From Bacteroidia bacterium (GTDB lineage Bacteria > Bacteroidota > Bacteroidia > Bacteroidales > JAPLDU01): a DNA stretch of 64,000 nucleotides. The stretch is taken from contig JAPLDU010000055.1 in NCBI GenBank assembly GCA_026391255.1, positions 925 through 64,924 on the forward strand, given 5' to 3'. The notes beneath the pieces are model-generated. The model was not told the origin of the DNA. It was given only the letters and a program-made list of their open reading frames with translations, and did not search any database. The first letter of the stretch is position 1. Every line of letters starts with the position of its first letter. Position numbers and translations under genes: made by a program. Below, piece after piece: positions 6,333-40,527 of this stretch.

Positions 6333-6362
6333 TAAGTGACTGATCAGGCGGAAAGGCTTATA

Positions 6363-6395
6363 TTAGTTATGAGTTATGAATTATGAGTGATGAGT
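6363..6395. repeat. 'TTATGAG' word repeat; near-identical inverted copy at 23447-23478
   Basis: TTAGTTATGAGTTATGAATTATGAGTGATGAG compares with the reverse complement of 23447-23478, TTAGTTATGAGTTATGAATTATGAGTTATGAA. They differ at 2 of 32 positions. Confidence 0.85.
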
Positions 6396-6445
6396 AATTT
6401 AAATAAATATCAGGTTTTAGGTATCAAGTATTAGGACTTATTAAC

Positions 6446-6510
6446 CATGACGTTCATGACGTCCATGACGTTCATGACGATCATGACTAATGACTTACGA
6501 CTGTTGACTA
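6446..6510. repeat. 9-nt tandem repeat (CATGACGTN)x4-5, decaying into GACTTACGACT words
   Basis: The sequence is CATGACGTT CATGACGTC CATGACGTT CATGACGAT CATGAC TAATGACTTACGACTGTTGACTA. It lies upstream of ftsZ-A. Confidence 0.9.
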
Positions 6511-6551
6511 TTATCAATGACCTTATTTGTTATGATAACAATTTTTTGAGA

Positions 6552-7805
6552 ATGAAAGAGAAAAATTTATTTCCTGAAATAGTGGATAAACCTGATGATC
6601 TGATTGATTTTGCATTTACAGAATTCAGTCCCTCCATTATCAAAGTAATCGGGGTCGGTGGAGGTGGCAGTAATGCAGTGAACCACATGTTTGAAACCGG
6701 CATTGAGGATGTGGAATTTGTCGTGTGTAATACCGATTCGCAGGCTTTGGCCAATAGCCCGGTAAGAACGAAAATCCAGTTAGGAACCGGCATCACTGAA
6801 GGCAGAGGGGCAGGAAGCGATCCGGGTGTCGGAGAACAAGCCGCCCGTGAAAACCTGCAGGATATCATTAATGTACTCGAGAATAATACAAAAATGGTGT
6901 TTATCACAGCAGGAATGGGAGGTGGTACCGGTACCGGGGCTGCTCCGGTGATCGCAGAAGAAGCCAGATCAAGAAAAATCCTCACGGTCGCTATTGTTAC
7001 GATTCCTTTTAAGACTGAAGTAGGTAACCGTTACAAACAAGCACTGGCTGGGATAAAAAAATTGCAAACACATGTTGATTCCCTGATCGTCATTGATAAT
7101 GAGCAGATAAACAAGAATTACGGTGATTCATCCTTTTCCGAAGCATTTAAGGAGGCAGATAAAATTTTGGGAACTGCAGCAAAAGCCATTGTGCAGATTA
7201 TCAAGATACATGGAATGTGGAATGTTGATTTCAATGACGTGAAAAAGGTAATGACCGACAGTGGTGTAGCCCTTATGGGAATTGGTGTTGCCAGTGGTGC
7301 TGACAGGGCCGTTACGGCTGTGGAAAATGCATTGAAATCGCCCCTTCTGAATAATAATAATATCAGGGATGCAAAAAAGATTTTACTGAATATTATTTCA
7401 GGAACAAATGAAATTCTGATGAGGGAGACACAGGATATTTGCCTGGCCCTGCAAAAAGAAACAGGGAGTGATCAGGAAGAATTCATCATGGGTGTGGCCA
7501 GGGATATGGGCCTGGGGGAAAACATATGTGTCACAGTAATAGCTACTGGATTTAAATCAGTTAACCCGGAGGATTACCGTAAACCTGAAGAACCTGAGAA
7601 TTTGATCCCTCCTGTTCCGGAAGAACCACCTGTTCCGGATGAAACTTCTTTTCAGGAAGAAATACAGCCGGAAGAGCCGGTTCAGGAGGACATACATCCT
7701 GAAGAACCAAAAATGAAGAAAAAGAAAATAAAAGACAAAAATCAGTTGAGTCTGTGGGAGAAATTCATGGAGAGTAAAAAGATATTTAATGAAGATATTA
7801 ATTAG
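6552..7805 (+). CDS. ftsZ: FtsZ paralog A (most divergent; acidic Pro/Glu-rich linker, basic/amphipathic C-terminus)
   Basis: FtsZ motifs GVGGGGSNAVNHM, NTDSQAL, GMGGGTGTGAAP (tubulin signature), NVDFNDV (T7) and VTVIATGF are present. The preferred start is ATG 6552 (MKEKNLF...). The longer ORF from 6447 begins inside a 9-nt tandem repeat (MTFMTSMTFMT). Confidence 0.9.
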   Translation: MKEKNLFPEIVDKPDDLIDFAFTEFSPSIIKVIGVGGGGSNAVNHMFETGIEDVEFVVCNTDSQALANSPVRTKIQLGTGITEGRGAGSDPGVGEQAARENLQDIINVLENNTKMVFITAGMGGGTGTGAAPVIAEEARSRKILTVAIVTIPFKTEVGNRYKQALAGIKKLQTHVDSLIVIDNEQINKNYGDSSFSEAFKEADKILGTAAKAIVQIIKIHGMWNVDFNDVKKVMTDSGVALMGIGVASGADRAVTAVENALKSPLLNNNNIRDAKKILLNIISGTNEILMRETQDICLALQKETGSDQEEFIMGVARDMGLGENICVTVIATGFKSVNPEDYRKPEEPENLIPPVPEEPPVPDETSFQEEIQPEEPVQEDIHPEEPKMKKKKIKDKNQLSLWEKFMESKKIFNEDIN

Positions 7806-7834
7806 TCATAAGTCGTAAGTCATAAGTCATAAGG
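7805..7834. repeat. 9-nt tandem repeat (GTCATAAGT-like)x3; related words at 6485-6510 and 61366-61396 (inverted)
   Basis: The sequence is GTCATAAGTCGTAAGTCATAAGTCATAAGG and starts at the ftsZ-A stop codon. Confidence 0.85.
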
Positions 7835-7903
7835 CAAAAGTTATAAGACAAAAGGGAATAAGGAGTACGTAGTAATGCTATTGGAAATATGCAGAAAAAT
7901 CAG

Positions 7904-7936
7904 GTAATTGTAATTCGTAAATCGTAATTCTAAAAT
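7904..7936. repeat. inverted copy of the 'TTAGAATTACGA' head of the 13781/17212/24402 element family
   Basis: The sequence is GTAATTGTAATTCGTAAATCGTAATTCTAAAAT. It ends 8 nt before the ftsZ-B ATG. Confidence 0.75.
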
Positions 7937-7944
7937 AATATAGT

Positions 7945-9303
7945 ATGGCAGAAACTGAAAATATCAGCGCACCGGTAAGCCAGTCTTCCATAATAAAAGT
8001 AATGGGAGTAGGCGGAGGAGGCAGCAATGCTGTGAACCATATGTTCAGGCAGGGCATCAGAGATGTTGATTTCCTGGTTTGTAATACCGATGCACAGGCA
8101 TTATTGCTCAGTCCCGTGCCTGCTAAAGTACAGATCGGTGAATCTCTCACCGATGGAAGAGGCGCCGGAAACAACCCTGAGATCGGATGCAAAGCAGCCC
8201 TTGAAACAGAGGAATCACTGAGGACTATCCTTTCAGAAAACACTAAAATGCTTTTTATAACGGCAGGAATGGGAGGTGGAACAGGTACGGGCGCAGCGCC
8301 TGTGATCGCACGAATTGCACACGAACTCGATATTCTTACCGTGGGCATAGTAACAATTCCTTTCAGATTTGAAGGAAATGTGAGGATCAGGCAAGCCGTG
8401 GCTGGTATTGAAGAACTTGAGAAATATGTCGACTCATTGCTGGTTGTCAACAATGAGAAACTCAGGAGTATGTTCGGCGATCAGAGGATTTCCGAAGCTT
8501 TTGAGAATGCTGATAATATCCTGACGGCTGCTGCAAAAGGAATTGCTGAGATTATCACCCTGCCCGGTTATGTCAATGTTGACTTTGCCGATGTTCATAC
8601 CGTAATGCATAAGAGTGGTGTGGCCATCATGGGATCTGCCAATTCCACAGGCGAGAACCGTGCTATGCATGCAATCCGCAAAGCGCTCAGTTCTCCCTTG
8701 CTGAACAGCAACCATATTACGGGGGCAAAAAATGTCCTGCTGAATGTGACCTCGGGAACCGAAGAATTCAGACTTGATGAATTATGCGAGATCACCGATT
8801 TTGTACAAAGCGAGGTTGAAGATAATGTCCAGATAATCTGGGGTCACGGAATTGATCCGCGGCTTGGCGATAACATATGCGTCACGGTGATTGCCACTGG
8901 TTTTGAAAAGGAAAATGTTCATGATGTTTTCATTGAAAAAGAAAAACTTGACAGTGCAGAGATTCACAGGCTCATTGATAAGATCGACCTGGAAATAATC
9001 AGCAAAAAATCAGAAGTTGCTATTGCCTCTGATCCGGAAGATTACAGGAAGGTTTTTCCTGAACAAATAACCCAAATTCCGGAAGAAGAAAAGCAGGAGT
9101 CGAAAAAAGCAGAAATTCTGGAGGAACTGATGACAGTTCATCTCAAACCGGAACATATTTTTGCAGATGTTCAGGAAAAGAAGGAAGAGGTAAAAACAGA
9201 AAGCATGTTTTCAAAAAGTCACAGACCGAAAGTAAAAAAAGCAAAAGAAGACAGGGAGAAAGGCTGGATACAGACCACCATCGAAGGATTCTTTACATCA
9301 TGA
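7945..9303 (+). CDS. ftsZ: FtsZ paralog B
   Basis: GVGGGGSNAVNHM, NTDAQAL, GMGGGTGTGAAP, PFRFEG, NVDFADV and VTVIATGF are present. It has a long charged C-terminal extension ending in GWIQTTIEGFFTS. Confidence 0.92.
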   Translation: MAETENISAPVSQSSIIKVMGVGGGGSNAVNHMFRQGIRDVDFLVCNTDAQALLLSPVPAKVQIGESLTDGRGAGNNPEIGCKAALETEESLRTILSENTKMLFITAGMGGGTGTGAAPVIARIAHELDILTVGIVTIPFRFEGNVRIRQAVAGIEELEKYVDSLLVVNNEKLRSMFGDQRISEAFENADNILTAAAKGIAEIITLPGYVNVDFADVHTVMHKSGVAIMGSANSTGENRAMHAIRKALSSPLLNSNHITGAKNVLLNVTSGTEEFRLDELCEITDFVQSEVEDNVQIIWGHGIDPRLGDNICVTVIATGFEKENVHDVFIEKEKLDSAEIHRLIDKIDLEIISKKSEVAIASDPEDYRKVFPEQITQIPEEEKQESKKAEILEELMTVHLKPEHIFADVQEKKEEVKTESMFSKSHRPKVKKAKEDREKGWIQTTIEGFFTS

Positions 9304-9518
9304 TCAATAGTTCATCAGAATTGAAAATAAAGCCCCAGTAAGAATAAATTGTACTGTACTATATAATAAAATGTTACAATCAATATAATCACTATTTTGT
9401 GTGACTTAGTGTAATCCTTTGTGTTCCTTTGTGGTTAATAAAAAAAGTTTTACCACAAAGGACGCTAAGGATGTCACAAAGGTTTACAAAGGAATTTTAA
9501 CAGAAAGTCAAAAAAATT

Positions 9519-10949
9519 ATGTTAGGAAAAATCCATATCGGAAAGAATGGTGCATCCACCATCAAAGTGATCGGAGTAGGAGGCGGAGGAAGCAATGCAG
9601 TGAATCACATGTACAACGCCGGGATAGCGGAAGTGGTTTTTGCTGTGTGTAACACTGATGTCCAGGCATTGAAAATAAGCCCGGTGCCAATAAAGATACA
9701 ACTGGGAGCGACACTGACAGGAGGCAGGGGAGCAGGGAACAAGCCTGAAACCGGCAGGATGTCTGCCGTAGAAACCATTGACCAGATTGACGAAATATTG
9801 AAAGACGACACCAGGATGGTATTTATCACTGCAGGAATGGGAGGAGGTACCGGTACCGGCGCAGCGCCTGTCATTGCAAAAACTGCCAGGGAAAGAGGTA
9901 TCCTGACCATCGGAATCGTCACTTTACCTTTCAGATTTGAGGGAAAGCGCAGGATTGACCAGGCAATCAAGGGAATCCGGGAACTGCAGGATTATGTAGA
10001 CTCATTGCTGGTCATCAATAATGAGAAGTTAAGAGAGATGTATGGTAACCTGAAAATATCCGATGCATTCCTGGTGGCCGACAATATTCTTACCATTGCT
10101 GCGCGAAGCATTGCAGAGATTATCACTATCCAGGGCTATGTAAATGTTGATTTTTCCGATATTAAAACAGTAATGAAAGACAGCGGCCTGGCCATCATGG
10201 GTTCGGCTACTGCATCCGGCGAAGGCCGGGCTGAAAAGGCCGTCCGCAATGCAATCAGCTCACCTCTGCTTGATAATAATGAAATTGCAGGAGCTAAAAA
10301 TATCCTGCTTCACGTATCGTCCGGTACACAAGAGGTAACCATGGATGAAATAGGGATCATTTCTGATTTTCTGCAGGAACAGGCCGGCGCACAGACAAAT
10401 ATCATCTGGGGTAACAGCATCAATCCTGCATTGGGAGAACAGTTATCAGTGACCATTATCGCAACCGGTTTCAAATCAGAAGTTGTACCTGATCTCTATG
10501 TCGCTGAGCATTATAACCGGTCTGTTTATGAACTGGGTAAAAACTCAGATGACAATCAACAAGCATCAGGAAACTCAAAAAAAGAAAAGGCTGCAATGAT
10601 TGATAATGCAATGACCAGTTCTCAACCGAAAACCACATTTACGGGAAGCGATGCAAAAATCAAGACTGACAGGGCTGAAACCGGTACTGAAGTGACAAAG
10701 AATCCGGCTAAGGATGAATCATTGATTAAAGAAGAAAAATTAAAAAAAACTACCGATGGTCTGAATTACCGTAAAGATATCAATGAAATTGAATCCATTC
10801 CAGCATACCTGAGAAAACAGGCTTTAAAAAAAATATTAGAAGAAAAAGCAAACAACCAGGAATTATCTGACAGGGTCTTGCATAGTAATGACAAAGGGCA
10901 GGTGGTCATTGGTGAAAACCCGTTTATCGGGAAAAAGAAAGTTGACTGA
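9519..10949 (+). CDS. ftsZ: FtsZ paralog C (carries the canonical C-terminal FtsA-binding peptide IPAYLRKQ)
   Basis: GVGGGGSNAVNHM, NTDVQAL, GMGGGTGTGAAP, PFRFEGKRR, NVDFSDI and VTIIATGF are present. The conserved peptide ESIPAYLRKQ is encoded at 10797-10820 and is followed by about 42 more residues. Confidence 0.93.
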   Translation: MLGKIHIGKNGASTIKVIGVGGGGSNAVNHMYNAGIAEVVFAVCNTDVQALKISPVPIKIQLGATLTGGRGAGNKPETGRMSAVETIDQIDEILKDDTRMVFITAGMGGGTGTGAAPVIAKTARERGILTIGIVTLPFRFEGKRRIDQAIKGIRELQDYVDSLLVINNEKLREMYGNLKISDAFLVADNILTIAARSIAEIITIQGYVNVDFSDIKTVMKDSGLAIMGSATASGEGRAEKAVRNAISSPLLDNNEIAGAKNILLHVSSGTQEVTMDEIGIISDFLQEQAGAQTNIIWGNSINPALGEQLSVTIIATGFKSEVVPDLYVAEHYNRSVYELGKNSDDNQQASGNSKKEKAAMIDNAMTSSQPKTTFTGSDAKIKTDRAETGTEVTKNPAKDESLIKEEKLKKTTDGLNYRKDINEIESIPAYLRKQALKKILEEKANNQELSDRVLHSNDKGQVVIGENPFIGKKKVD

Positions 10950-11867: not shown

Positions 11868-11918
11868 CTAAATTAATTTGAAAATTTGAAAATGTGCAAA
11901 TTTGAAAATGAAATCCGT
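11868..11918 (-). promoter_or_regulatory. 51-bp repeat module upstream of the transglutaminase-like gene (copy 1), promoter-like
   Basis: CTAAATTAATTTGAAAATTTGAAAATGTGCAAATTTGAAAATGAAATCCGT differs from 23362-23412 at one base. On the minus strand it reads TTTG, then 21 nt, then TAATTTAG. It ends 36 nt upstream of the start codon. Confidence 0.5.
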
Positions 11919-13748: not shown

Positions 13749-13780
13749 TCTGATGGAAATTGTCTGAACCACTGATTATT

Positions 13781-13877
13781 TTAATTTTAGAATTACGAAT
13801 TACGATTTACGAATATAATCAAATGATATTTAGTGGATTAAACAATATTTATGGATTAAATAAATTTCGGTTTAATC
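13781..13877. repeat. ~100-bp intergenic element, family 'TTAATTTTAGAATTACGA...AATTTCGGTTTA' (copy 1)
   Basis: Three colinear copies are alignable by eye at 13781-13877, 17212-17307 and 24402-24509. Confidence 0.8.
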
Positions 13878-13978: not shown

Positions 13979-14719
13979 CTAAATTCCGGAGTTCTTAGTT
14001 TGTTTTATTCCTGAATATAATGCAGCTATTCCGAAACTTAAAGAAATATACTCTACTTTTTTGAACCCTGCTTCTTCAAGTTTTTGCAGGAATGCTTTTC
14101 CTTCAGGAAATGCAGCTACCGATTCAGGCAGGTAGGAATAGGCTGTGCGATCCTTAGAAATTAAACGGCCGACAAAAGGCAATATGAGGCGGAAGTAGCA
14201 TTGAAAAAGTTGTTTCACCGGGAAGGCTGAAGGCTTGGAAAACTCAAGTACCACAAATATTCCACCTGGTTTAATTACCCTGAAAATCTCAAATAGTCCT
14301 TTTTCCAGGTTTTCAAAGTTACGAACGCCAAAGGCTACTATTGCAGAATCAAAGGATTGTGCTTCAAATGGAAGGTTTTCAGAATCTGCCTGCAGCAACT
14401 CAATCACATGGCTGAGTTTCCTTTTAATTATTTTGTCTCTGCCAATCTTCAGCATTTCGGCCGAAATGTCTATTCCGGTGATCTTAACAGGATTAAGCTT
14501 CATAGCTTCAATGGCAAGATCACCGGTACCTGTGGCAACATCGAGTATTGTGAGGGGATGATGATCTTTCAGCAGTGAAATGGCTTTTCTTCGCCAGAGC
14601 CTGTCAATATTCAGAGATAATAAATGATTCAGAAAATCGTAATGGCCTGCAATGTTATCAAACATCCGGGCTACCTGTTCCTTTTTGCTTTTATCTGCTG
14701 ACCTGTATGGAAGAACCAA
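13979..14719 (-). CDS. ubiE: demethylmenaquinone / ubiquinone C-methyltransferase UbiE/MenG
   Basis: The N-terminal sequence KKEQVARMFDNIAGHYDFLNHLLSLNIDRLWRR and the SAM motif LDVATGTGDLA are present. Confidence 0.92.
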   Translation of the reverse strand: MVLPYRSADKSKKEQVARMFDNIAGHYDFLNHLLSLNIDRLWRRKAISLLKDHHPLTILDVATGTGDLAIEAMKLNPVKITGIDISAEMLKIGRDKIIKRKLSHVIELLQADSENLPFEAQSFDSAIVAFGVRNFENLEKGLFEIFRVIKPGGIFVVLEFSKPSAFPVKQLFQCYFRLILPFVGRLISKDRTAYSYLPESVAAFPEGKAFLQKLEEAGFKKVEYISLSFGIAALYSGIKQTKNSGI

Positions 14720-14738
14720 TGGTTTATTTTATTTCTCA

Positions 14739-14889
14739 GTTTGTAAAGTTCATAAAGTTTATAAAGTTCATAAAGTTTTTAAATACAAATTATTGCTATA
14801 CATTGAAATATTCACAATATATTAAATGATAAATGATTGATTATTTGTTTATATTATCAACTTTTAACTATCAACTTAATAAACTTTAT
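14739..14889. repeat. ~150-bp element with inverted arms built from (GTTCATAAA)n words (copy 1, inverted relative to copies 2 and 3)
   Basis: The left arm is GTTTGTAAAGTTCATAAAGTTTATAAAGTTCATAAAGTTT. The right arm is CAACTTTTAACTATCAACTTAATAAACTTTAT. The core aligns to the reverse complement of the 42338-42473 core. Confidence 0.75.
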
Positions 14890-17168: not shown

Positions 17169-17211
17169 AAGAATAATATACTGGTAATTATTAGCAAAGA
17201 TAGATATTATA

Positions 17212-17307
17212 TTAATTTTAGAATTACGAATTTCGATTTTAGAATACAATCAAATGAATTCTATGGGTTAAACAAAAATTATGTAATAAATTAATTTCGG
17301 TTTATTA
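17212..17307. repeat. ~100-bp intergenic element, same family (copy 2)
   Basis: The sequence is TTAATTTTAGAATTACGAATTTCGATTTTAGAATACAATCAAATGAATTCTATGGGTTAAAC...TTAATTTCGGTTTATTA. It lies upstream of purL. Confidence 0.8.
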
Positions 17308-17555
17308 TAATTGCATATAGCTTAAGACTTACCCGGTAATATAAAAATGATGGAATTTAGAAAATAAGTTAAAGAATGAGTCTGTTCCGAAAAGTCAAAA
17401 ATAATAATAATGCCACTAAGACTCAAAGACACCAAGAATCACAAAGTCTTTATTTCCATAATATTAAATTTAGTGAAACTTTGTGTCATTGTGCCTTTGT
17501 GGCGATAATTTCTTTTTGGGAATGGAATCAAGATTCAAATCTGCGGATTTTCAGA

Positions 17556-20204
17556 TTATCTCACTGTGATTGTTCCCTTTAACCGCACATCCTTTGATGA
17601 TGCACCGATCATGATCTGAAAATCACCGGGCTCGATCACGGTATTAAGGTCTTTGTCAAGCATAGAAAGCATTTCAGGGCTGATTTCAAAACTGATGGTT
17701 TGTATTTCACCTTTTTTGAGGTGTATACGCTGGAAGGCCTTCAGTTCAATTACAGGACGGGCTACTGAGGCCAGCACATCATGAATATATAACTGTACCA
17801 CTTCGTCGCTATCCAGGTTTCCGGTGTTTTGAAGCTGAAAATGAACAATGGTTTTTTCACTCGCAGTAATAATGTTTTTGTCAAACTTCAGGTTATCGTA
17901 TGAAAATGAAGTATAGCTCAAGCCATAGCCAAAAGGGTACATGGCCTGCCCGGTCATATTGAGGTAATCATCGCCGCGGCCGGTGGGCTTATGGTTGTAT
18001 ACCAGCGGCAGTTGGCCTTCAAATACGGGAAATGTGATGGGTAATCTTCCCGCAGGATTGTAATCGCCAATGAGAATATCTGCTATGGCATCGCCGCCTT
18101 CTTCGCCCGGGTACCAGGCATCAAGAATGGCTGATGTATGTGATGGCCAGTCATTCGTAGCTGTCACAGCGCTTCCGGCCACAAGAATTACAATCACAGG
18201 TTTCCCTGTGGCACATAGCCTGCTGATCAGTTCTTCCTGTTTTCCGGGGAGGGAAAGATGTGCCCTGTCCCTGAATTCACCTTCCTCGATCCCTGCTACA
18301 AAAATAATGGCATCACATGGAGAGGCCATACTTACGGCAAAATCCTCATTCAATTTGCTCTGATCCCTGATTCCGGCGTTCCATACCAGGCTGAACCAGG
18401 CATTACCAGTCGGTTCATAGAATTCAATTCTGATGTCATATTCAGCATCTCTAAAAAAAAGATAATCCACAAGAGTTGATTGCCTGGTAATTTTTTGCCA
18501 CCTGTCAATTATTAGTTTATTGTTGATAAAAAGCCGGTAGCCATCATTTCCGTCTATCCCGATTTTGTAAGTGCCTGTACCGGGAGATTTTAGTTTCCCT
18601 GCCCATCGGACTGAATAATAACCATAGTCAAGACATTGCGGATCAGGTGAAAATAATGTCCATTGGAAATTGATTTCTTTATCATACCTGGTAAATTCTG
18701 GTGTACCCTCAAGTCTGACATTGTTGAAATATTCGCCTTTCAGACCGGGTTTCAGACTGTCATTTTCCTGATGAAGAAGGTAGCTGCCTGGAATTGTGAT
18801 GTATTCTCTGGTTGTTCTTTCACATCCTTTGATATACCTGATATTGACCGAACTTCCGAGCTTATTTTGTATACCTTTCAGAATGCTTATCTTATCATTC
18901 CCCGGGCCGCTGTAACCGCCCAGCCTGGCTTCATCGGCATCCGGGCCGATAACGGCTATACTTTTGATATCTTTTGAAAGAGGAAGTATATTATTATCAT
19001 TTTTAAGCAGTACTATGGATTCGAGGGCTGCCTTTTTTGCCAGCTCACGATGATCTGGATTTTTGTTCAATAGTTCTGCGTCATTAGTTTTGACATAAGG
19101 ATCGGAGAACAGTCCAAGCCTGAATTTTGCCCTCAGAACCCGGGCAACTGCGCTATCAATGACCGGAACAGGTATTTTACCCTCTTCAAACGCTTTGTAG
19201 AACAGGGGATAATGATCATATGAAGTTTGTAAAATAACGTCAAGACCGCTATTAAGAGAATTGATGGTTGCTTCTTCATAATCTTTTGCGGTCATATGAA
19301 GGACATTGGCTCCTCCGACTGCACCGGCATCCGATATCACGAATCCTTTAAACCCATATTCTTTTTTCAGTATCTGATTAATCAGGTGATCATTGGCGCT
19401 GCATGGACTTCCGTCCAGTGAATTATAGGACGTCATGACAGAGGTGGAGCCACCTTCAGTAATGCAGGTTTTGAAAGGAGGGAGGTAAATTTCCCTGAGC
19501 AGGCGATCGTTAAAATGGATAGGATAACTATCCCTGCCACCATCTCCTACATTTGCCAGGAAGTGCTTGGGAGTAGTAATTACTCCCTGTTTTTCAAATT
19601 CACTGACAAAAGCTTTAGCCATTACAGAGCAGAGATAAGGATCTTCTCCGTAAGTTTCTTCTGTGCGTCCCCAGCGTACATCGCTTGCTATGTTTACCAC
19701 CGGTGACAGAACCTGCCTGATGCCCCTGCTCCTGCACTCACTGGCAATAGCCGCTGATACCTGGTGCATCAGTGAATCATCGAAACTGGCCGCCAGGCCG
19801 ATAGATTGCGGGAAAGAGGTCGCTCCGGGCTGCACAAGCCCATGCAGGGCTTCCTCAAAAGGGATAATGGGAATTCCAAGCCTGGTGTTTTCCCTGAACC
19901 ATTTCTGCATGGAATTGACCTTCAAAGATATATCATACCGGGGATTTGAATTATCTGGTAATTCACCTACTCTTATCTGTATTCCGAAAATTCCATGACT
20001 GAACCTGCCCTTGTCTTTCATGAAATCATCAGGGATCATAAAGAGCTGCCAGAACTTTTCTTCCATGGTCATGCGTGAAAGCAGGTCTTTCACCCTTGTT
20101 TCGACTGGCAGTGATTCGTCTTTATAAGGCTGGGCCTGAACACCTGACAGTCCGGTGATCAGACAATAAATAAAAATAAAGGTCTTTGTTGATATTATCT
20201 TCAT
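17556..20204 (-). CDS. secreted glycoside hydrolase family 3 beta-glucosidase with PA14 insert
   Basis: There is a signal peptide. GH3 N-terminal and C-terminal domains are present, including the GFVISDAGAV nucleophile region. A PA14-like insert is present (GLKGEYFNNVRLEGTPEF...). Confidence 0.88.
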   Translation of the reverse strand: MKIISTKTFIFIYCLITGLSGVQAQPYKDESLPVETRVKDLLSRMTMEEKFWQLFMIPDDFMKDKGRFSHGIFGIQIRVGELPDNSNPRYDISLKVNSMQKWFRENTRLGIPIIPFEEALHGLVQPGATSFPQSIGLAASFDDSLMHQVSAAIASECRSRGIRQVLSPVVNIASDVRWGRTEETYGEDPYLCSVMAKAFVSEFEKQGVITTPKHFLANVGDGGRDSYPIHFNDRLLREIYLPPFKTCITEGGSTSVMTSYNSLDGSPCSANDHLINQILKKEYGFKGFVISDAGAVGGANVLHMTAKDYEEATINSLNSGLDVILQTSYDHYPLFYKAFEEGKIPVPVIDSAVARVLRAKFRLGLFSDPYVKTNDAELLNKNPDHRELAKKAALESIVLLKNDNNILPLSKDIKSIAVIGPDADEARLGGYSGPGNDKISILKGIQNKLGSSVNIRYIKGCERTTREYITIPGSYLLHQENDSLKPGLKGEYFNNVRLEGTPEFTRYDKEINFQWTLFSPDPQCLDYGYYSVRWAGKLKSPGTGTYKIGIDGNDGYRLFINNKLIIDRWQKITRQSTLVDYLFFRDAEYDIRIEFYEPTGNAWFSLVWNAGIRDQSKLNEDFAVSMASPCDAIIFVAGIEEGEFRDRAHLSLPGKQEELISRLCATGKPVIVILVAGSAVTATNDWPSHTSAILDAWYPGEEGGDAIADILIGDYNPAGRLPITFPVFEGQLPLVYNHKPTGRGDDYLNMTGQAMYPFGYGLSYTSFSYDNLKFDKNIITASEKTIVHFQLQNTGNLDSDEVVQLYIHDVLASVARPVIELKAFQRIHLKKGEIQTISFEISPEMLSMLDKDLNTVIEPGDFQIMIGASSKDVRLKGTITVR

Positions 20205-20208
20205 TAGA

Positions 20209-20397
20209 GAAAATTTGAAAATTTGAGGATTTGAAAATTATTAGATGTGAGTTGAACAATTATGAACAATTGAAAATAAGAGCAATTGAACAAATAAATA
20301 TATGAAATATAGAATATTATCAAACCGATAATTATCAAATTATCAACTTGCCTAATTATCACATTGTCAAATTATCACATTATCATATTATCACATT
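20209..20397. repeat. spacer composed of consecutive word arrays (TTTGAAAAT)n, (GAACAATT)n, (AATTATCAC)n
   Basis: The spacer contains GAAAATTTGAAAATTTGAGGATTTGAAAATT, then GTTGAACAATTATGAACAATTGAAAATAAGAGCAATTGAACAA, then AATTATCAAATTATCAAC..AATTATCACATTGTCAAATTATCACATTATCATATTATCACATT. Confidence 0.85.
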
Positions 20398-23327
20398 TTC
20401 AAATCATTTACCAGTGCATCGTACAATATCTCTGCCGGATGATAGGCTCTGCGGCTGGTTCCGTCGGCAATCTGGTGGCGGCAGCTCGTGCCGGGGGCAC
20501 AGATGAGCACGTCTTCATCGGTTTTTCTGATTTCTGGGAACAAGACTAATTCACCGATCTTCATTGAGACATCGTAATGTTCTTTTTCATAACCGAATGA
20601 ACCTGCCATTCCGCAACATCCTGAAGGAATTTCTTCAACGGTGTAGTTTTCCGGAAAAGAAAGGATTTTTTTTGTCGGAGAGGTAGAAGCAATAGCCTTT
20701 TGCTGGCAGTGACCGTGCAGCCTGATGTGCAGCTTGTTGCCGGTGAATGAGGATTTATCAATATTACCTTTCTCAATTTCCTTTTCAAGGAACTCTTCCA
20801 GCATGAATGAATTTTCAGCAATTTTCCTTGCGGAATCTCTCAGTTCATCCGGAACAAGTTCAGGGTATTCATCCCTGAAAGCCAGGATAGCTGAAGGTTC
20901 GATACCGATCAGCGGAGTAGACGGGCTGATAATGGATGATAATAGCGCCACATTCTTTGAGGCAATTTTTTTTGCTTTTCGAACCAGTCCTTTTGACAGG
21001 TAAGCTCTTCCGCTTTCAAGATGCCGGGGAATAATGACTGTGTAACCAAGTTTTTCAAGTAACAATATGGCTTTTATACCGATTTCAGGTTCGTTGTAAT
21101 TGGTGAATTCATCGTTGAAAAGGTATACTTTTCCTTTTGAACCGGATTTGTTTTCAGGTTCGGTTTTTTTCTTCATCCATGCACCAAGTGTAAGTCCTGA
21201 CAGGTGTGGTATCTGCCGTTCACGGGCAAAACCAAGCCAGCGTTTCAGTAATCCTGATGCTGTTTTGTTTTTGAAAAAGAAGTTGGTTAGGTCCGGAACT
21301 AATGAACCTATTTTGCTGATGGATGAGATATGGGCGATCATCCATGCCCTGAAAGGAATTCCATTGGCATCATAGTAATGCTGCAGGAACTCAGCTTTGA
21401 ATTTAGCCATATCGACTCCCGAAGGGCACTCTGATTTGCAGGCTTTACAGGAAAGGCAGAGGTCCATCACTTCATAAATCTCTTTATGGTTTAATGGGTC
21501 TTTACTCCCGGGGCGGTAGATAAAATCCCTGAGAATATTGGCCCTGGCCCGGGTGGTATCATATTCATTCCGGGTAGCCATGTAACTCGGACACATGGTG
21601 CCTCCGATCACTTCAGTTTTGCGGCAATCAGCCGATCCGTTGCACTTTTCAACAGCGCGTACAAAACCTTCCGTTGATGAATAGTCGAAATATGTTTTGA
21701 TTTGTGGTGGTAATGTCCCAGGTTCTACCCTGAACGAGGAGGTGATGGATGGTGTATCGGTAATTTTCCCGGGATTAAAAATGTGGTCAGGATCCCAGGT
21801 TTGTTTAATTTCTTTGAGCAGGCGGTAATTTTTCTCACCGATCATAAAAGGAATAAATTCACCGCGCAGCCTGCCATCACCATGCTCACCGCTGAGTGAG
21901 CCCCTGTATTTTTTAACGAGAACGGCAATCTCAGAGGCAATGGTATGAAACAGATCCACATCTTTTTTATCCTTCAGATTGAGGACAGGCTTCAGGTGCA
22001 ATTCTCCGGAACCTACATGCGCATAATAAACACAGGTCAGATGATGTTTTGCCAGAATTTTCTGAAACTCCTCAATATATGCAGGAAGCGATTCGCAACT
22101 CACTGCGGTATCTTCTATCACCGCTACGCTCTGTGCATCGCCCGGGATGTTCGACAGCAATCCAAGTCCAGCTTTCCGGAGGTCCCACACCTTTTTTGTT
22201 TCCGGTATAAAGAGCAATGGGAAATAATAGCCAAGCCCGGCGTTTCTCATCTCAGTTTCCATGGATGATGCCAGTTGCTGAATTTCTTCCCTGGTTTCAC
22301 GGGCGAACTCGATCATCAGGATTGCTCCCGGATCACCTTTGACAAAAAACCGGTTTTTGCTGTGTTCTATGCTGTACCTGGTGCAATCAAGGATGATCTT
22401 ATCCATGAGTTCCACTGCACCGGGTTTGTACTTCAAAGCAATCAGGTTGGCCAGTAATGCCTGGTTCACCGTATCGAAATGTGCGGCCACCACGCCTGTT
22501 TCTGAAGGTGGCAAAGGTACCAGGTTCAGTTTTATTTCTGTGATGAAGGCAAGAGTACCTTCTGATCCGGCTATCAGCTTTGTCATGTTGAAAGGCTTGC
22601 CATTGCCGGTAAAGGGATCGGTCTCGAGCAGGATATCGATCGCATAACCGGTATTGCGGCGATGCAAGGCAGGATCAGGAAATTCCTTGCGTATTTCTTC
22701 CTGGTTCAGTCTGTCCGACAATACCTGCCTGAGTTGCCTGTAAATCCTGTTTTCAAGATTATCACCAAAACATTTCTGATCAAATTCTTCCTTTGATAAA
22801 GGTTTGAATTCCACTTCGGAACCATCGCTGAGAAATGCATTTACAGAAATGGTATGATCCCTGGTGCTGCCGTATATAATGGAATGTGAGCCACATGAAT
22901 TATTTCCCACCATACCTCCGATCATGCAACGGTTAGAAGTGGATGTTTCCGGTCCGAAAAATAACCCGGAAGCAGCCAGGTATTTGTTCAGTTCATCAAG
23001 CACCACCCCTGGTTCCACCTTTACCCAATGTTCAGCAACATTCAGTTCGATGATTTTATTCAGGTGCTTTGACACATCCACTACGATACCGTTACCGACT
23101 ACCTGGCCGGCCAAAGAGGTGCCGGCAGTTCGCGGGATAACTGGTATTTTGAACTTTCCCGAAAAATCAAGGATTTTTCTGATGTCATTTTTGTTGCGAG
23201 GAATGGCAACTGCAAGCGGTAATTCCTTGTAAACCGAAGCATCTGTTGCATATAAGAGCCGCATGGTTTGGCCGGTATGAAATTCCCCTTCCAGCGAATG
23301 GCCGAGCTCTGTAAGTTTTTGGTGCAT
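20391..23327 (-). CDS. FAD-binding and (Fe-S)-binding oxidoreductase (GlcD-GlcF fusion, YdiJ-like 2-hydroxyacid dehydrogenase)
   Basis: The N-terminus is an FAD PCMH-type domain. A central ferredoxin-like cluster motif (CLSCKACKSECP) is present, and the C-terminus has Cys-rich CCG-like repeats. The start is taken at MHQKLTEL (23327). The ORF track extends to 23351. Confidence 0.8.
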   Translation of the reverse strand: MHQKLTELGHSLEGEFHTGQTMRLLYATDASVYKELPLAVAIPRNKNDIRKILDFSGKFKIPVIPRTAGTSLAGQVVGNGIVVDVSKHLNKIIELNVAEHWVKVEPGVVLDELNKYLAASGLFFGPETSTSNRCMIGGMVGNNSCGSHSIIYGSTRDHTISVNAFLSDGSEVEFKPLSKEEFDQKCFGDNLENRIYRQLRQVLSDRLNQEEIRKEFPDPALHRRNTGYAIDILLETDPFTGNGKPFNMTKLIAGSEGTLAFITEIKLNLVPLPPSETGVVAAHFDTVNQALLANLIALKYKPGAVELMDKIILDCTRYSIEHSKNRFFVKGDPGAILMIEFARETREEIQQLASSMETEMRNAGLGYYFPLLFIPETKKVWDLRKAGLGLLSNIPGDAQSVAVIEDTAVSCESLPAYIEEFQKILAKHHLTCVYYAHVGSGELHLKPVLNLKDKKDVDLFHTIASEIAVLVKKYRGSLSGEHGDGRLRGEFIPFMIGEKNYRLLKEIKQTWDPDHIFNPGKITDTPSITSSFRVEPGTLPPQIKTYFDYSSTEGFVRAVEKCNGSADCRKTEVIGGTMCPSYMATRNEYDTTRARANILRDFIYRPGSKDPLNHKEIYEVMDLCLSCKACKSECPSGVDMAKFKAEFLQHYYDANGIPFRAWMIAHISSISKIGSLVPDLTNFFFKNKTASGLLKRWLGFARERQIPHLSGLTLGAWMKKKTEPENKSGSKGKVYLFNDEFTNYNEPEIGIKAILLLEKLGYTVIIPRHLESGRAYLSKGLVRKAKKIASKNVALLSSIISPSTPLIGIEPSAILAFRDEYPELVPDELRDSARKIAENSFMLEEFLEKEIEKGNIDKSSFTGNKLHIRLHGHCQQKAIASTSPTKKILSFPENYTVEEIPSGCCGMAGSFGYEKEHYDVSMKIGELVLFPEIRKTDEDVLICAPGTSCRHQIADGTSRRAYHPAEILYDALVNDLKM

Positions 23328-23361
23328 AAATGAAATAAAAGCCAATTGCAAAAATAAGAAG

Positions 23362-23412
23362 CTAAATTAATTTGAAAATTTGAAAATGTGCAAATTTGAA
23401 AATTAAATCCGT
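23362..23412 (-). promoter_or_regulatory. 51-bp repeat module upstream of the YdiJ-like oxidase gene (copy 2), promoter-like
   Basis: It has the same sequence and orientation as 11868-11918. It ends 34 nt upstream of ATG 23327. Confidence 0.5.
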
Positions 23413-23446
23413 TTCACGGAATAAGATTATCGACAACAGTTGGTAT

Positions 23447-24348: not shown

Positions 24349-24401
24349 TCTGTTTATTATTAAATCAGGTGCAAATAAAATAAATATCTTAACCAATTAC
24401 A

Positions 24402-24509
24402 TTAATTTTAGAATTACGATCCGCCGGAGGCGGAACGATTTACAAATATAAACAAATGACATTTAGTTGATTAATCAATATTTAAGTAATAAATAAATCT
24501 CGGTTTAAT
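24402..24509. repeat. ~100-bp intergenic element, same family (copy 3), carrying an inserted GC mini-palindrome at 24420-24434
   Basis: The sequence is TTAATTTTAGAATTACGA[TCCGCCGGAGGCGGA]ACGATTTACAAATATAAACAAATGACATTTAGTTGATTAATC...ATCTCGGTTTAAT. Confidence 0.8.
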
Positions 24510-24525
24510 ATAATTTAATATCACA

Positions 24526-25272: not shown

Positions 25273-25366
25273 TCACGCAGAGACGCTAAGACGCAAAGAA
25301 AATTATCTAATCTTATCGAATAATATAGATCGATATTTTTATGAATAGCCTCTCAATTTATCTTGG

Positions 25367-25590
25367 TATCTTATTTCTAAAATCGTGATGCGTTTTGGCA
25401 AAAAATTCCAAAAAACAAATCACAAAAAACAAATAATAAACAATCTGCCACGGCGGACAAAATTTCAAATACGAAACAAACTATTTTGAATTTGTCATTT
25501 TGTTGATTGATATTTATTTGTGATTTGTTCCGCCACGGCGGATTGAGATTTGTGATTTCTTGTTTGGTTCTGGCTTGTCCAGGTTAGGGT
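25367..25590. repeat. ~225-bp palindromic (MITE-like) element E1, in a convergent spacer
   Basis: It is colinear with 49174-49468. The left arm (...TTTTGGCAAAAAAT..CACAAAAAACAAATAATAAACAAT...) is an imperfect inverted repeat of the right arm (...ATTGATATTTATTTGTGATTTGT...GAGATTTGTGATTTCTTGTTTGG). Each arm carries a (T)CCGCCACGGCGGA-type mini-palindrome. Confidence 0.8.
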
Positions 25591-27126: not shown

Positions 27127-27262
27127 AGTTCATAAAGTTCATAAAGTTCATAAAGTTTATAAAGGAAAAAGTTTCGACAAATAATAATTAATCAAAAATT
27201 TATAATTTTATGTATCCGGAATATTTAAGAACTATACAGACTTTATAAACTTTTAACTTTAT
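27127..27262. repeat. same element family (copy 2), located inside the kor operon between the beta and gamma subunit genes
   Basis: The left arm is AGTTCATAAAGTTCATAAAGTTCATAAAGTTTATAAAGG. The right arm is GACTTTATAAACTTTTAACTTTATAA, and its end supplies the korB stop codon. Confidence 0.75.
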
Positions 27263-28047
27263 AAACTATCCTCCGGTACTTTAATATCTCCTAGAGGATA
27301 AAATGGAAACATATTTTCTTCCATCCAGATATTGGCCTGGTTTGGTGTCATTTTCCAACCGGAGTTACAATTTGAAACCACTTCAACAAAGGAGACGCCC
27401 TTATTCAGCTTTTGATTTTCAAAGGCTTTCCGAATGGCTTTTTTGCATTTTCTGACGGCAGCAGGAGTATGAACTGCCTGTCGGGTGACATAATAAGTGC
27501 CGGGCAATTGGGCGACTAATTCCGTCATTTTAATAGGGTTACCCATCATCGCAGTATTTCTTCCGTAAGGACTGGTCGATGTTACCATACCCGCAAGAGT
27601 TGTAGGAGCCATCTGGCCGCCAGTCATTCCATAAATGCCATTATTGATGAAGATTATTGTGATATTCTCACCCCTGTTGCAGGCGTGAATGGTTTCTGCA
27701 GTACCAATAGCTGCAAGGTCACCGTCACCCTGGTAGGTAAATACAAACTTTTCGGGCATTACTCTTTTAATACCTGTTGCAACTGCCGGAGCCCTTCCGT
27801 GTGCAGCTTGCTGCATATCAATGTCCATGAACTGGTAGGCTAATACTGAACAGCCGACGGGAGCAACACCAATGGTTTGCGATTGTATACCCATTTCTTC
27901 AATAGTTTCCATAATCAGCCTGTGTACAGTGCCATGGCCGCAACCCGGGCAATAGGACAAAATATTTTCTGTCAGTAAAGGTGTTCTTTTGTAAATGAGG
28001 TTTTCAGCCTTGATAATATCCGTTACTTCCATGTTACTTTCCTCCAA
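27259..28047 (-). CDS. 2-oxoacid:ferredoxin oxidoreductase, beta (TPP-binding) subunit
   Basis: CPGCGHG and the TPP motif GDGDLAAIG...NNGIYGMTGGQ are present. It overlaps the alpha subunit gene by 14 nt. Confidence 0.9.
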   Translation of the reverse strand: MEESNMEVTDIIKAENLIYKRTPLLTENILSYCPGCGHGTVHRLIMETIEEMGIQSQTIGVAPVGCSVLAYQFMDIDMQQAAHGRAPAVATGIKRVMPEKFVFTYQGDGDLAAIGTAETIHACNRGENITIIFINNGIYGMTGGQMAPTTLAGMVTSTSPYGRNTAMMGNPIKMTELVAQLPGTYYVTRQAVHTPAAVRKCKKAIRKAFENQKLNKGVSFVEVVSNCNSGWKMTPNQANIWMEENMFPFYPLGDIKVPEDSL

Positions 28048-29107: not shown

Positions 29108-29133
29108 TCTGTGCGTTTTTAAGATCAGTTAGC

Positions 29134-29358
29134 TCAAACTTTTACACGGTAAACACTTATCACTCCATCAGGGCATACGATACCGCAATTGGCACATCCC
29201 GTACATTCTTCAGGTTTTACCATGTAGGCAAATGGATATCCCCTGCCATTCACTTCTTTTGAAATGGCGATTACCTCAAAAGGACAGGAAGGAATGCATA
29301 CCTCACATCCTTTACACCTCTCTATGTCAATAACAATCGCACCTCTGACTTTTGCCAT
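29134..29358 (-). CDS. 2-oxoacid:ferredoxin oxidoreductase, delta subunit (2x[4Fe-4S] ferredoxin)
   Basis: Two cluster motifs are present, CKGCEVCIPSCP and CTGCANCGIVCP. The protein is 74 aa. Confidence 0.88.
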   Translation of the reverse strand: MAKVRGAIVIDIERCKGCEVCIPSCPFEVIAISKEVNGRGYPFAYMVKPEECTGCANCGIVCPDGVISVYRVKV

Positions 29359-29631
29359 GATCCTTATTGTTTTAATAATGCATCAAAGGAAATTAATTTC
29401 TGTATAAATGCTTATGTTATTTATCAGATTTTAAAAACAAAGTGCTGGCTTATCTTAATACTGGAATAATACGAGTGCCTGACTTAGAAAACCTATGCGG
29501 CTGTAGCCTTTACATAATATTGTAAATGATGCAAATACTTCAGATGAAATCATTATCGTAACAGAATGGTTTTGATTTTTTTCTTTTAATAAATTTCACC
29601 AATATTGCAGTTTACGAATTATTTTTAATTC

Positions 29632-39336: not shown

Positions 39337-39464
39337 GTCACAAGTCACTGGTCACGAGTGATGAGGTGATGAAGTGATGAAGTGATGAAGTGACGAAGTG
39401 ACGAAGTGACGAAGTGATGATGAGATTTGAACCTGATACCTGATACCTGATACCTGATACCTGA
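39337..39464. repeat. composite microsatellite: GTCAC words, (GTGA[TC]GAA)x8 8-mers, then (ACCTGAT)x4 7-mers
   Basis: The sequence is GTCACAAGTCACTGGTCACGAGTGATGAGGTGATGAAGTGATGAAGTGATGAAGTGACGAAGTGACGAAGTGACGAAGTGATGATGAGATTTGAACCTGATACCTGATACCTGATACCTGA. Confidence 0.9.
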
Positions 39465-40390: not shown

Positions 40391-40527
40391 TTTTATCTAT
40401 TGTGTGTTTATGGTATATCTTGCGTTATAAAAATAAAAGCAAATGGCGCTAATGAACAGGTCGGAAAATTAATACATCTTCCCATTATTAAGTAATTTAA
40501 GTAAAAAATATTTATTTGACATGTTCA

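Follow-up and report, generated by a model that had tools for sequence, protein, structure and literature searches.

The window analysed here, a 64,000-nt stretch of a Bacteroidales-type genome assembled from a metagenome in 161 contigs, contains a 186-nt spacer between a GH3 gene and a YdiJ-like gene (20205–20390), 60% of which is covered by tandem arrays of short words. Because both flanking genes lie on the minus strand, the spacer is tandem, neither convergent nor divergent, which corrects a preliminary description of this DNA. Using Tandem Repeats Finder, we identified two direct arrays in it. The first, (GAAAATTT)x3.9 at 20209–20239 (+), has the canonical word AAAATTTG, begins 5 nt upstream of the start codon of GH3 and gives about 150 blast alignments with the rest of the genome. 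On contig C23, two S23p gene cassettes have arms made of this word. The second, (AATTATCA/ATTATCAC)x9.4 at 20330–20404 (+), carries the canonical word AATGTGAT in reverse, overruns the stop codon of the YdiJ-like gene and yields 90–325 alignments elsewhere. The spacer had been described as three successive word arrays, of which these two stand and the middle one does not: the region 20245–20325 is nearly unique, with 1–3 matches elsewhere in the genome, and the putative GAACAATT array there amounts to 1.9 copies of the 10-mer TGAACAATTA (20253–20271) and scattered similar words.

Direct arrays occur at many other places in the window. Two of them, (AGTGATGA)x8 and then (ACCTGAT)x4.9, abut at 39357–39464 (+), where the predicted fold is not significant (z −1.55), and a string of AGGCAAT x5.9, TGATACC x4, GTCACYYC about x6 and GTCTCTCA x2.4 runs through 60122–60327 (+). 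Arrays of TATGAGT x5, a 14-mer x2 and CATGACGTT x4.7 precede the first ftsZ paralogue (6361–6487, +), and AGTCATA x6.3 and AATCGTA x3.1 lie between the ftsZ paralogues (7804–7934, +). The 9-mer array (AGTTYATAA)x5.1 at 14738–14783 (+) sits 19 nt upstream of the start of a minus-strand gene (13979–14719), and its family has more arrays at 27127–27164, 27240–27267 and 42339–42360. Tandem Repeats Finder recovered the other sites quoted at the outset, namely 39357–39464 and 60122–60327 together with 46212–46247, 41061–41095, 57448–57509, 9415–9433 and 17479–17501. The accompanying remark that no long spacer of the window was found free of arrays does not hold, as 9 of the 28 spacers of at least 100 nt have none (for example 29108–29631, 40391–41032 and 46948–47281). 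Rfam models matched one tRNA and no other known RNA family in the whole window.

Repeat load of the genome

Arrays cover 16.7% of non-coding base pairs genome-wide and 1.0% of coding DNA (Tandem Repeats Finder), whereas order-1, order-3 and order-5 Markov simulations gave a coverage of 0.8–1.1%, bearing out the impression of an unusual density. The repeats extend well beyond the window, with 3998 arrays in total and at least one in 1248 of the 1823 spacers of at least 100 nt. Their dominant period is 7 (1429 arrays), followed by 8 (795) and 9 (542), rather than the 8–9 nt initially given as the rule; there are nearly no arrays of periods 1–5, and the largest arrays reach 54 units. Strong arrays, those of periods 7, 8 and 9 among them, number 978 in non-coding and about 89 in coding DNA, where 9- and 12-mer arrays are relatively commoner, in line with the exclusion from coding sequence of unit lengths not divisible by 3.

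The family structure noticed among the window's arrays is a genome-wide property, a small recurring vocabulary in which AAAATTTG accounts for 167 arrays, ACCTGAT for 95 and AACTCAT for 81. Array boundaries have a preferred phase (CCTGATA starts 72 of the 95 ACCTGAT arrays), and neighbouring arrays keep a fixed relative orientation, with 64 of 87 in the dominant arrangement versus about 42 expected. Arrays of the AANTCRT type prefer the G-rich strand (90:35). Relative to transcription, most array words have no orientation bias; AAAATTTG arrays are biased 68:31, and the 9-mer family AAAGTTYRT, which lies 22–33 nt upstream of starts genome-wide, 12:34. The median distance from array to start is 50–230 nt, depending on the word, and array coverage is highest in convergent spacers (17.5%) and lowest in divergent ones (9.5%). 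A role in DNA curvature, one of the functions proposed earlier, is not supported: the AA/TT autocorrelation has its maxima at 7, 14 and 21 nt rather than at 10–11 nt.

Several candidate causes were considered and rejected. MutS and MutL are intact in the genome, which argues against loss of mismatch repair, and PolA is complete and retains the 5' nuclease domain, which argues against loss of flap processing. Gradual in-place diversification of neighbouring arrays is not apparent either, adjacent words being no more alike than random pairs from the vocabulary. We also located Logan contigs from different runs through exact proteins. Over a 3.4-kb stretch around the HU gene, six independent contigs share one and the same sequence, arrays included, and no length polymorphism was seen among them; other Logan contigs break at arrays. 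In the assembly itself, 24% of contig ends are no more than 150 nt away from an array, and some contigs terminate inside arrays.

Cassettes and their gene-less miniatures

The genome contains 18 matches to PF05635 (S23p, the 23S-rRNA-IVS protein family), 16 of them above the Pfam cut-off, and 8 GxxExxY genes (PF13366/TIGR04256 matches). The S23p proteins score 84–124 bits against TIGR02436, a four-helix-bundle family, and weakly match the Avd model of diversity-generating retroelements. In the cassette layout, a word array is followed by a gene of about 100–130 codons, whose product is an S23p/Avd-like four-helix bundle or a GxxExxY protein of PD-(D/E)XK fold, and then by an array of the same word in inverted orientation; arm words match within one cassette and differ between cassettes. 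Inverted arrays of an identical or related word flank 8 of 20 cassette genes; among the other small genes, 12 of 630 are flanked in this way (odds ratio 34, p = 1.7e-8), and around them there is no inverted bias (44 inverted, 58 direct). Across the genome, related-word partners 16–700 nt apart comprise 158 inverted and 33 direct pairs. All cassettes have protein-coding genes on both sides. A look for an intervening sequence in the genome's own 23S rRNA found no such gene in the assembly. The frequent words ACCTGAT, AATGTGAT and AAAGTTCAT were not seen as arms of gene-bearing cassettes in this genome.

Gene-less counterparts of the cassettes lie in the window. The element E3 (144 copies, about 95% identity) is palindromic and about 200–230 nt long, with CAAATMA heptamer arms; the copy at 25363–25590 (+) carries two small GC-rich hairpin inserts. 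E3 corresponds to the S23p cassette C76:22557–23095 minus its gene, with both arms and both termini present. A second copy (49170–49459, +) has about 96 extra nt in its centre and arrays at 49404–49445. The outer ends of E3 are asymmetric, not inverted repeats, and most copies are bounded on both sides by TTAG, either a 4-nt duplication or a piece of the element itself. We identified no transposase for E3, and the cassettes have neither a transposase nor a mechanism of mobility that is known.

Four further sites fold into hairpins. The long hairpin at 9400–9495 (+, fold z −6.2) is a miniature of a GxxExxY cassette: its arms, made of CACAAAGG-type words, both match those of C77:11081–11570. The hairpin at 17405–17515 (+, z −4.1; 6 copies in the genome) has word arms of the same CACNAAGR type. 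The hairpin at 57440–57515 (+, z −7.9), whose arms are CACATAGT / ACTATGTG, is another GxxExxY miniature and has both arms in common with the cassettes of contigs C29 and C129. Downstream of the HU gene, a weaker hairpin with GACTAAG-word arms (46170–46260, +, z −2.7) is identical in the six independent Logan contigs. These sites (cited as 9405–9490, 17410–17510, 46180–46250 and 57448–57509) had been grouped with the direct arrays as one style of repeat; as inverted-arm hairpins, at z −2.7 to −7.9, they form a separate class. Direct arrays are unstructured (fold z −0.3 and −1.6), and for no more than about 15% of arrays is there an inverted partner within 700 nt, so that hairpin termination is not supported as a general role.

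Two other dispersed families also carry word runs. E2 (68 copies, about 93% identity; 23362–23445, +, with a partial copy at 11868–11918) consists of a fixed AATTTGAAAATTTGAAAATGTGCAAATTTGAAAATT block followed by a small hairpin, TCCGTGAAACGGA. E1 (42 copies, about 91% identity; 13776–13876, +, with others at 17207–17309 and 24397–24512) opens with 2–4 GAATTAC units, and the heptamer run of one copy contains a 15-nt mini-hairpin, T-CCGCC-GGA-GGCGG-A (24421–24433). In both families unit number varies among copies. The idea of a generating process, also raised earlier, gains indirect evidence from the words in E3, E2 and E1 and from this variation in unit number, as it does from the preferred boundary phase, the fixed orientation of neighbours and the match between array words and the arms of S23p and GxxExxY cassettes.

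Distribution among relatives

Arrays of the AANTCRT heptamer superfamily occur in 95 of 301 genomes of the order, of which the present genome is the extreme case, and such words are also found outside the order, in complete single-contig genomes of the phylum; a reversed control pattern gave counts near zero. By raw counts, which ignore kinship and genome size, 90 of 236 S23p-positive genomes and 4 of 64 S23p-negative genomes have AANTCRT arrays, and the share climbs with S23p count class from 6% through 29% and 40% to 52%, a recorded count of 15 meaning at least 15. None of the 64 S23p-negative genomes has a heavy array load. Many genomes with at least 15 S23p matches have no AANTCRT arrays, and the distribution is patchy inside genera (for example 148, 0 and 0 matches in one genus). 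Around purL, array density ranges from 0 to 51 bp/kb in 80 relatives versus 36.6 bp/kb here; since this measure is confounded by GC content, we relied on pattern counts with the reversed-pattern control. Of 20 S23p loci in 17 further members of the order, 18 have 7–9-nt arrays within 300 nt, often with the same word inverted. The present genome is alone in its family among representative genomes, and we found no close relatives with orthologous spacers.

Comparison with known repeats and elements

Heptamer repeats between bacterial genes (STRR) have been known since about 1990 and have no accepted origin or function. Those of heterocystous cyanobacteria were reportedly described by Mazel et al. 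in 1990, and their words CCCCAGT, TTGGTCA and CAACAGT form no arrays in the present genome. Both systems consist of a handful of heptamer words in tandem at numerous intergenic places, in hosts rich in small dispersed elements; the arrays here, however, belong to another phylum and commonly have periods of 8 and 9 as well. Heptanucleotide repeats of Calothrix are mentioned in PMC4692102. The same source describes GGGAATC and GGGGA(C/T)T heptamers of Xanthomonas and Nostoc, which are intergenic, include some inverted pairs, vary in length and sequence between close species and, being G-rich, can form quadruplexes (Rehm et al. 2015, PMC4692102). The present arrays are likewise intergenic heptamers with some inverted pairs, but their words are AT-rich, and the GGGAATC and GGGGA(C/T)T words form no arrays in this genome.

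Long simple sequence repeats, as summarised in PMC4679880 from Mrazek, Guo and Shah (2007), have units of 5–11 nt, most commonly heptamers, are mostly intergenic and have been attributed to slippage; Bacteroidota do not appear in its list of repeat-rich genomes. The arrays described here share the head-to-tail units of 5–11 nt, the excess over compositional expectation and the mostly intergenic position. They differ in their extreme density (17% of non-coding DNA) and in having a small recurring vocabulary, fixed boundary phases and words tied to cassette arms. TAACTGA direct repeats have been reported from Beggiatoaceae, cyanobacteria and five Bacteroidetes, with "other heptamer direct repeats" beside them in Bacteroidetes (MacGregor 2015, PMC4679880). 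These too are intergenic heptamer direct repeats, and the TAACTCA found here is one base off, although TAACTGA itself has 0 arrays and 0 exact dimers in the present genome. In contrast to TAACTGA repeats, which lie forward-oriented a few nt ahead of start codons, our arrays do not cluster immediately before genes and are mostly unoriented, the AAAGTTYRT 9-mers alone lying 22–33 nt upstream.

A further point of reference is provided by modular dispersed repeats, among them the BOX elements of pneumococci and Porphyromonas BrickBuilt. Like these and like MITEs, E3 and the hairpin miniatures are short, gene-less, multi-copy and intergenic, with variable internal modules, and E3 further resembles MITEs in deriving from a longer gene-bearing element, the C76 cassette. 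The outer ends of E3 are not inverted repeats, no transposase is associated with it, and its parent encodes S23p rather than a transposase. To our knowledge, S23p-type cassettes are otherwise known only as 23S rRNA intervening sequences, inserts in a helix that RNase III cuts out of the RNA. In Coxiella burnetii, the 23S rRNA intervening sequence is a selfish, sporadically distributed element whose terminal inverted repeats form a long stem around an S23p (PF05635) gene (Warrier et al. 2016, PMC4990558). The cassettes described here resemble it in their inverted arms around a small S23p gene, and the miniatures fold at z −4 to −8. Yet they sit between ordinary genes rather than in rRNA, number at least 18 S23p genes in one genome, have arms made of tandem word arrays, occur as gene-less miniatures in up to 144 copies and house a second gene family, GxxExxY, in an identical architecture.

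Origin of the arrays

That cassette arms share their words with the arrays may explain where the repeats come from. We favour, with somewhat better than even confidence, an account in which the arrays are seeded by cassettes and then grow by replication slippage. On this view they did not arise independently of one another. Small palindromic cassettes would be the source of the vocabulary and would be mobile; they have given rise to gene-less miniatures in up to 144 copies, other dispersed elements carry fixed word runs too, and the spread and decay of all these elements would plant words at many loci. Once planted, arrays would lengthen and shorten where they lie, through slippage during replication or through unequal recombination; loops of 7–9 nt are too large for the intact MutS and MutL to repair. 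Direct arrays, which are unstructured, would be neutral filler, and inverted pairs form long hairpins. Against this account, most arrays lack an inverted partner and only 26% adjoin a non-array dispersed repeat, so that the descent of most solo arrays from cassettes, as orphan arms, is inferred rather than observed. The direction of the link could also be the reverse, with cassettes settling in array-rich DNA or recruiting existing arrays as arms.

A reading that dispenses with any causal role for cassettes treats the arrays as microsatellite-type repeats born in place by slippage. Such slippage is the standard account of 5–11-nt repeats in which heptamers dominate (Mrazek et al. 2007, as summarised in PMC4679880), and it suits a genome in which most arrays are solo, reach tens of units and lack short periods while mismatch repair is intact. 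We nevertheless consider it unlikely: chance 7-mer seeds would spread over thousands of words rather than give about 100 loci per word, and slippage alone explains neither the fixed boundary phase and neighbour orientation nor the recurrence of AANTCRT in a third of the order and beyond, with a reversed control near zero, nor why no S23p-negative genome among 64 is heavily loaded. Alternatively, the arrays might be functional, serving as binding platforms for a nucleoid protein, S1, a cold-shock protein or another post-transcriptional regulator, or as leaders and trailers that tune expression. For TAACTGA repeats, MacGregor put forward a role of this kind (PMC4679880), and the placement and bias of the AAAGTTYRT 9-mers (12:34), the 68:31 bias of AAAATTTG, the unstructured state of direct arrays and the recurrence of one heptamer superfamily across the phylum are in keeping with it. 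Most words are unoriented relative to transcription, however, convergent spacers, which have no promoters or leaders, are the most covered, the distribution within genera is patchy and the phasing is at odds with curvature, and we regard a general function as quite improbable.

The cassettes might instead encode the activity that makes the arrays, with an Avd-like S23p protein acting together with a polymerase or reverse transcriptase, or a GxxExxY nuclease starting hairpin-primed repair synthesis. The matches of S23p to TIGR02436 and, weakly, to the Avd model, the nuclease fold of GxxExxY (PF13366), the G-rich strand preference of AANTCRT arrays and the agreement of arm words within but not between cassettes all lend themselves to such a mechanism. 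We give it little credence, as neither family has a known enzyme activity, the cassettes here could not be linked to a reverse transcriptase and many genomes with 15 or more S23p matches lack AANTCRT arrays. Finally, an assembly artefact might be suspected from the fragmented metagenome assembly and the contig ends near arrays, but this is so improbable as to be negligible: six independent Logan assemblies from different runs give identical sequence, complete single-contig genomes of the phylum contain arrays of the same words, and the arrays are shorter than a sequencing read.

Seeding by cassettes and expansion by slippage could apply more widely. Tentatively, and with considerable doubt, we suggest that the 7–9-mer intergenic arrays of Bacteroidota, and possibly the heptamers of other phyla, are footprints of IVS-type cassettes, with S23p/Avd-like or GxxExxY genes, that spread outside rRNA genes and left miniatures and orphan arms behind, from which a genome's repeat vocabulary would stem. 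Repeats of this kind, long simple sequence repeats and STRR-type heptamers, are already known yet poorly understood, and the present genome is an extreme case, with one sixth of its non-coding DNA in heptamer-type arrays. In practice, arrays and cassettes interrupt assemblies made from short reads and swell the intergenic DNA of Bacteroidota genomes. The proposal offers a concrete, testable origin for heptamer repeats, in which their words are the arms of selfish cassettes and miniatures. If true, it would merge heptamer repeats and S23p/GxxExxY genes, both poorly understood, into one system, explain the patchy distribution of the repeats across genomes and indicate candidate proteins for testing.

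Word arrays fill non-coding DNA throughout the genome

The source genome is a metagenome-assembled genome (4.08 Mb, 161 contigs, 39.5% GC; the window is C83:925-64924) with Bacteroidota-type content (Peptidase C25, T9SS sorting domain, DUF5916, GH3); its PurL is at most 76% identical to PurL of uncultured Bacteroidales genomes, and it alone represents its family among the representative genomes compared. The spacer under study is bordered by two minus-strand genes, a GH3 gene (17556-20204) and a gene for an FAD-oxidase/4Fe-4S protein of the YdiJ type (20391-23351). The preliminary description read this spacer as three concatenated word arrays. Using Tandem Repeats Finder, we recovered the two outer ones, (GAAAATTT)x3.9 at 20209-20239 and (AATTATCA)x9.4 at 20330-20404, but only a 1.9-copy 10-mer between them. 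Arrays cover 60% of the spacer; the two outer arrays have 150-325 matches elsewhere in the genome, and the middle stretch is nearly unique. The same program found repeats at all the other sites that the description listed, but the impression given there that every long spacer in the window carries arrays did not hold: of the 28 spacers measuring 100 nt or more, 9 lack them.

The repeats are not confined to the window: we counted 3998 merged arrays across the genome, with period 7 the commonest (1429), followed by 8 (795) and 9 (542), and periods 1-5 almost absent. As anticipated, density was higher in non-coding than in coding DNA (16.7% versus 1.0% coverage, with ORFs of 100 aa or more serving as a crude coding mask) and exceeded a composition-matched null, non-coding DNA simulated with Markov orders 1, 3 and 5 reaching only 0.8-1.1%. 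An array is present in 1248 of the 1823 spacers of at least 100 nt. Convergent spacers are the most heavily covered (17.5%), followed by tandem (14.9%) and divergent ones (9.5%). Dispersed repeats other than arrays make up another 21% of non-coding DNA. An assembly artefact can be set aside, because six independent Logan contigs match the window over 3.4 kb including arrays, and complete genomes from the phylum contain arrays of the same words.

Two other features of the window involve repeats. A 166-nt unit (x1.8, 85% identity, 45184-45490) lies just upstream of the HU gene and ends at a minus-strand tRNA gene (45475-45561), the window's only Rfam match; independent Logan contigs break at this repeat. 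Word arrays are also present in the spacers between three tandem ftsZ paralogues (6447-10949), the last genes of a cell-division cluster.

Arrays sharing a word did not arise independently

The 3384 arrays of period 6-11 comprise 1224 canonical units, of which a few words dominate: AAAATTTG (167 arrays), AAATAAC (98), ACCTGAT (95), AACTCAT (81), AAATCAC (75), AATTACG (73), AATGTGAT (71) and AAAGTTCAT (69). Words form single-mutation networks, namely the heptamers AANTCRT, octamers CAMATYWT and nonamers AAAGTTYRT. Boundary phase is largely fixed, CCTGATA beginning 72 of 95 ACCTGAT arrays and AATTTGAA beginning 112 of 166 AAAATTTG arrays. Neighbouring arrays take their dominant relative arrangement in 64 of 87 cases (about 42 expected, maximum 49 in 200 simulations), and some words are part of dispersed elements, E1 (n = 42 copies), E2 (n = 68) and E3 (n = 144). 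Together, these observations show that arrays built from the same word did not arise independently of one another.

E1 (13776-13876, 17207-17309 and 24397-24512 in the window) is intergenic and starts with 2-4 GAATTAC units. E2, also intergenic (23362-23445 and 11868-11918), consists of a fixed octamer block and then a hairpin, TCCGTGAAACGGA, that resembles a terminator, the opposite strand carrying a T-rich run. Unit number varies from copy to copy in both elements. E3, a palindromic element with CAAATMA heptamer arms (25363-25590 and 49170-49459; 113 near-full copies genome-wide), has asymmetric outer ends and, in most copies, TTAG at both borders. The TTAG may reflect duplication of a 4-nt target or a target preference; no transposase for E3 was identified.

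A 15-nt mini-hairpin, T-CCGCC-NNN-GGCGG-A, occurs 99 times genome-wide (control patterns, 0-11), including at 24421-24433, 25446-25458 and 25530-25543. It is non-coding in 86 of 99 cases, lies within 20 nt of an array in 58, and has TCC/GGA or TGA/TCA loops. It is found inside arrays and copies of E1, E2 and E3, where it takes the place of 3 nt of host sequence and the same word resumes on either side. Similar very small dispersed hairpin repeats occur in cyanobacteria.

Inverted arrays bracket S23p and GxxExxY genes

The direct arrays are unstructured (fold z-scores -0.3 and -1.6). A second class consists of inverted word arrays forming long hairpins, with four examples in the window: 9400-9495 (z -6.2), 17405-17515 (z -4.1), 46170-46260 (z -2.7) and 57440-57515 (z -7.9). 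Both arms of the first (compared over 9380-9510) are shared with a GxxExxY cassette on contig C77, and both arms of the last (compared over 57430-57525) with GxxExxY cassettes on C29/C129.

In such cassettes a small gene sits between inverted word arrays. The genome has 18 matches to PF05635 (S23p), 16 of them above cut-off, and 8 to GxxExxY/PDDEXK_3. Where both flanks of a cassette gene are assembled, it lies between inverted arrays whose words are identical or related, for example AGGCAAT / CCTAATG (C156), GTGAATG / CACCATT x18 (C65), AATTTGAA / TTCAAATT (two instances, C23), AATTACG / TAACTCG x20 (C78), CACAAAGG (C77), ACATAGAA (C129) and nested double arms (C17). Scored strictly, inverted arms flank 8 of 20 cassette genes, compared with 12 of 630 small genes of other kinds (odds ratio 34, p = 1.7e-8); around these other genes, inverted arrays are not favoured over direct ones (44 versus 58). 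Inverted related-word arrays also enclose a few ordinary small genes, encoding PnuC-like and GcvH-like proteins, an HD-domain protein and an Rrf2-like regulator (C16:17183-17890, C61:11059-11660, C93:9425-10078 and C143:34698-35180).

E3 corresponds to the S23p cassette at C76:22557-23095 minus its gene, with both termini and both arms retained. Across the genome, 314 of 2123 arrays have a related-word partner 16-700 nt away; such partners are inverted in 158 cases versus direct in 33, and in dozens of inverted pairs the DNA between the arms is non-coding and 120-350 nt long. Of the 19 commonest words, about 13 are found in the source genome as arms of cassettes that carry a gene.

Many cassette genes lie at contig ends; S23p genes are often within a few hundred bases of them (C10, C130, C67, C45, C82, C11, C58 and C76), and 24% of contig ends have an array no more than 150 nt away. 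Because the assembly breaks at cassettes and arrays, the numbers and lengths given for them here are underestimates.

Arrays accompany S23p in other genomes

Of 301 genomes sampled from the order, 95 contain (AANTCRT)x3, representing 80 of 208 genera, with a reversed control pattern near zero; the source genome has 749 matches, and the next highest counts are 148, 146 and 126. The distribution of the pattern is patchy within genera and it is commoner in larger genomes. Across the phylum, 40 of 201 sampled genomes, some of them complete, contain the same words. In a 100-kb sample, chosen with bias, of another genome (G018), 31% of non-coding DNA lies in arrays; its vocabulary is partly its own, and ACCAGTG, one of these words, makes up the arms of an S23p cassette in that genome. 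At 18 of 20 S23p loci from 17 genomes of the order, 7-9-nt arrays lie within 300 nt, often as the same word inverted.

S23p is present in 237 of 301 genomes of the order. AANTCRT arrays occur in 90 of 236 S23p-positive versus 4 of 64 S23p-negative genomes (odds ratio 9.2, uncorrected for relatedness or genome size), and the share of genomes with such arrays rises from 6% to 52% with S23p count (capped at 15; likewise uncorrected). At least 10 AANTCRT matches were found in no S23p-negative genome.

Origin and possible roles of the arrays

A repair defect is not the cause, as MutS, MutL and PolA, including its 5' nuclease domain, are intact. MutS recognises loops longer than ~4 nt poorly, consistent with periods 7-9 being in excess and periods 1-5 nearly missing. 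Words would have dispersed first, and arrays would then have been resized by slippage; the varying unit number in E1 and E2 fits slippage after dispersal, as do the length of free arrays, up to 54 units, and the start of some contigs within an array. Arrays of the AANTCRT superfamily favour the locally G-rich (leading-strand-like) strand (90 versus 35, p about 1e-6), hinting at a replication-linked process; other words show no such bias genome-wide. Promoter or leader roles, and the DNA curvature suggested in the preliminary description, are disfavoured by array orientation, which is mostly random relative to transcription, and by AA/TT phasing at 7, 14 and 21 nt rather than 10-11 nt. The 9-mer family may be an exception, as it is located 22-33 nt upstream of starts.

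By definition, the arrays belong to the 5-11-nt class of long simple sequence repeats, and they resemble the tandem heptamer repeats (STRR) of cyanobacteria; no arrays of TAACTGA, STRR words or GGGAATC occur in the source genome. MacGregor described heptamer repeats in a few Bacteroidetes (PMC4679880), and Rehm et al. noted that little is known about heptamer repeats (PMC4692102). Within the collection of papers searched, we found none linking S23p or GxxExxY cassettes to intergenic heptamer arrays. The cassettes share stem and gene family with the intervening sequences (IVS) of 23S rRNA (PMC4990558) but, unlike these, do not sit in rRNA; no 23S gene is assembled in the source genome. The arrays are thus real and found throughout the genome, and they represent an extreme case of a repeat type already known. 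Most solo arrays are tied to cassettes by shared words only; the tests made here lend support to the idea that IVS-type cassettes and their miniatures seed the array vocabulary.
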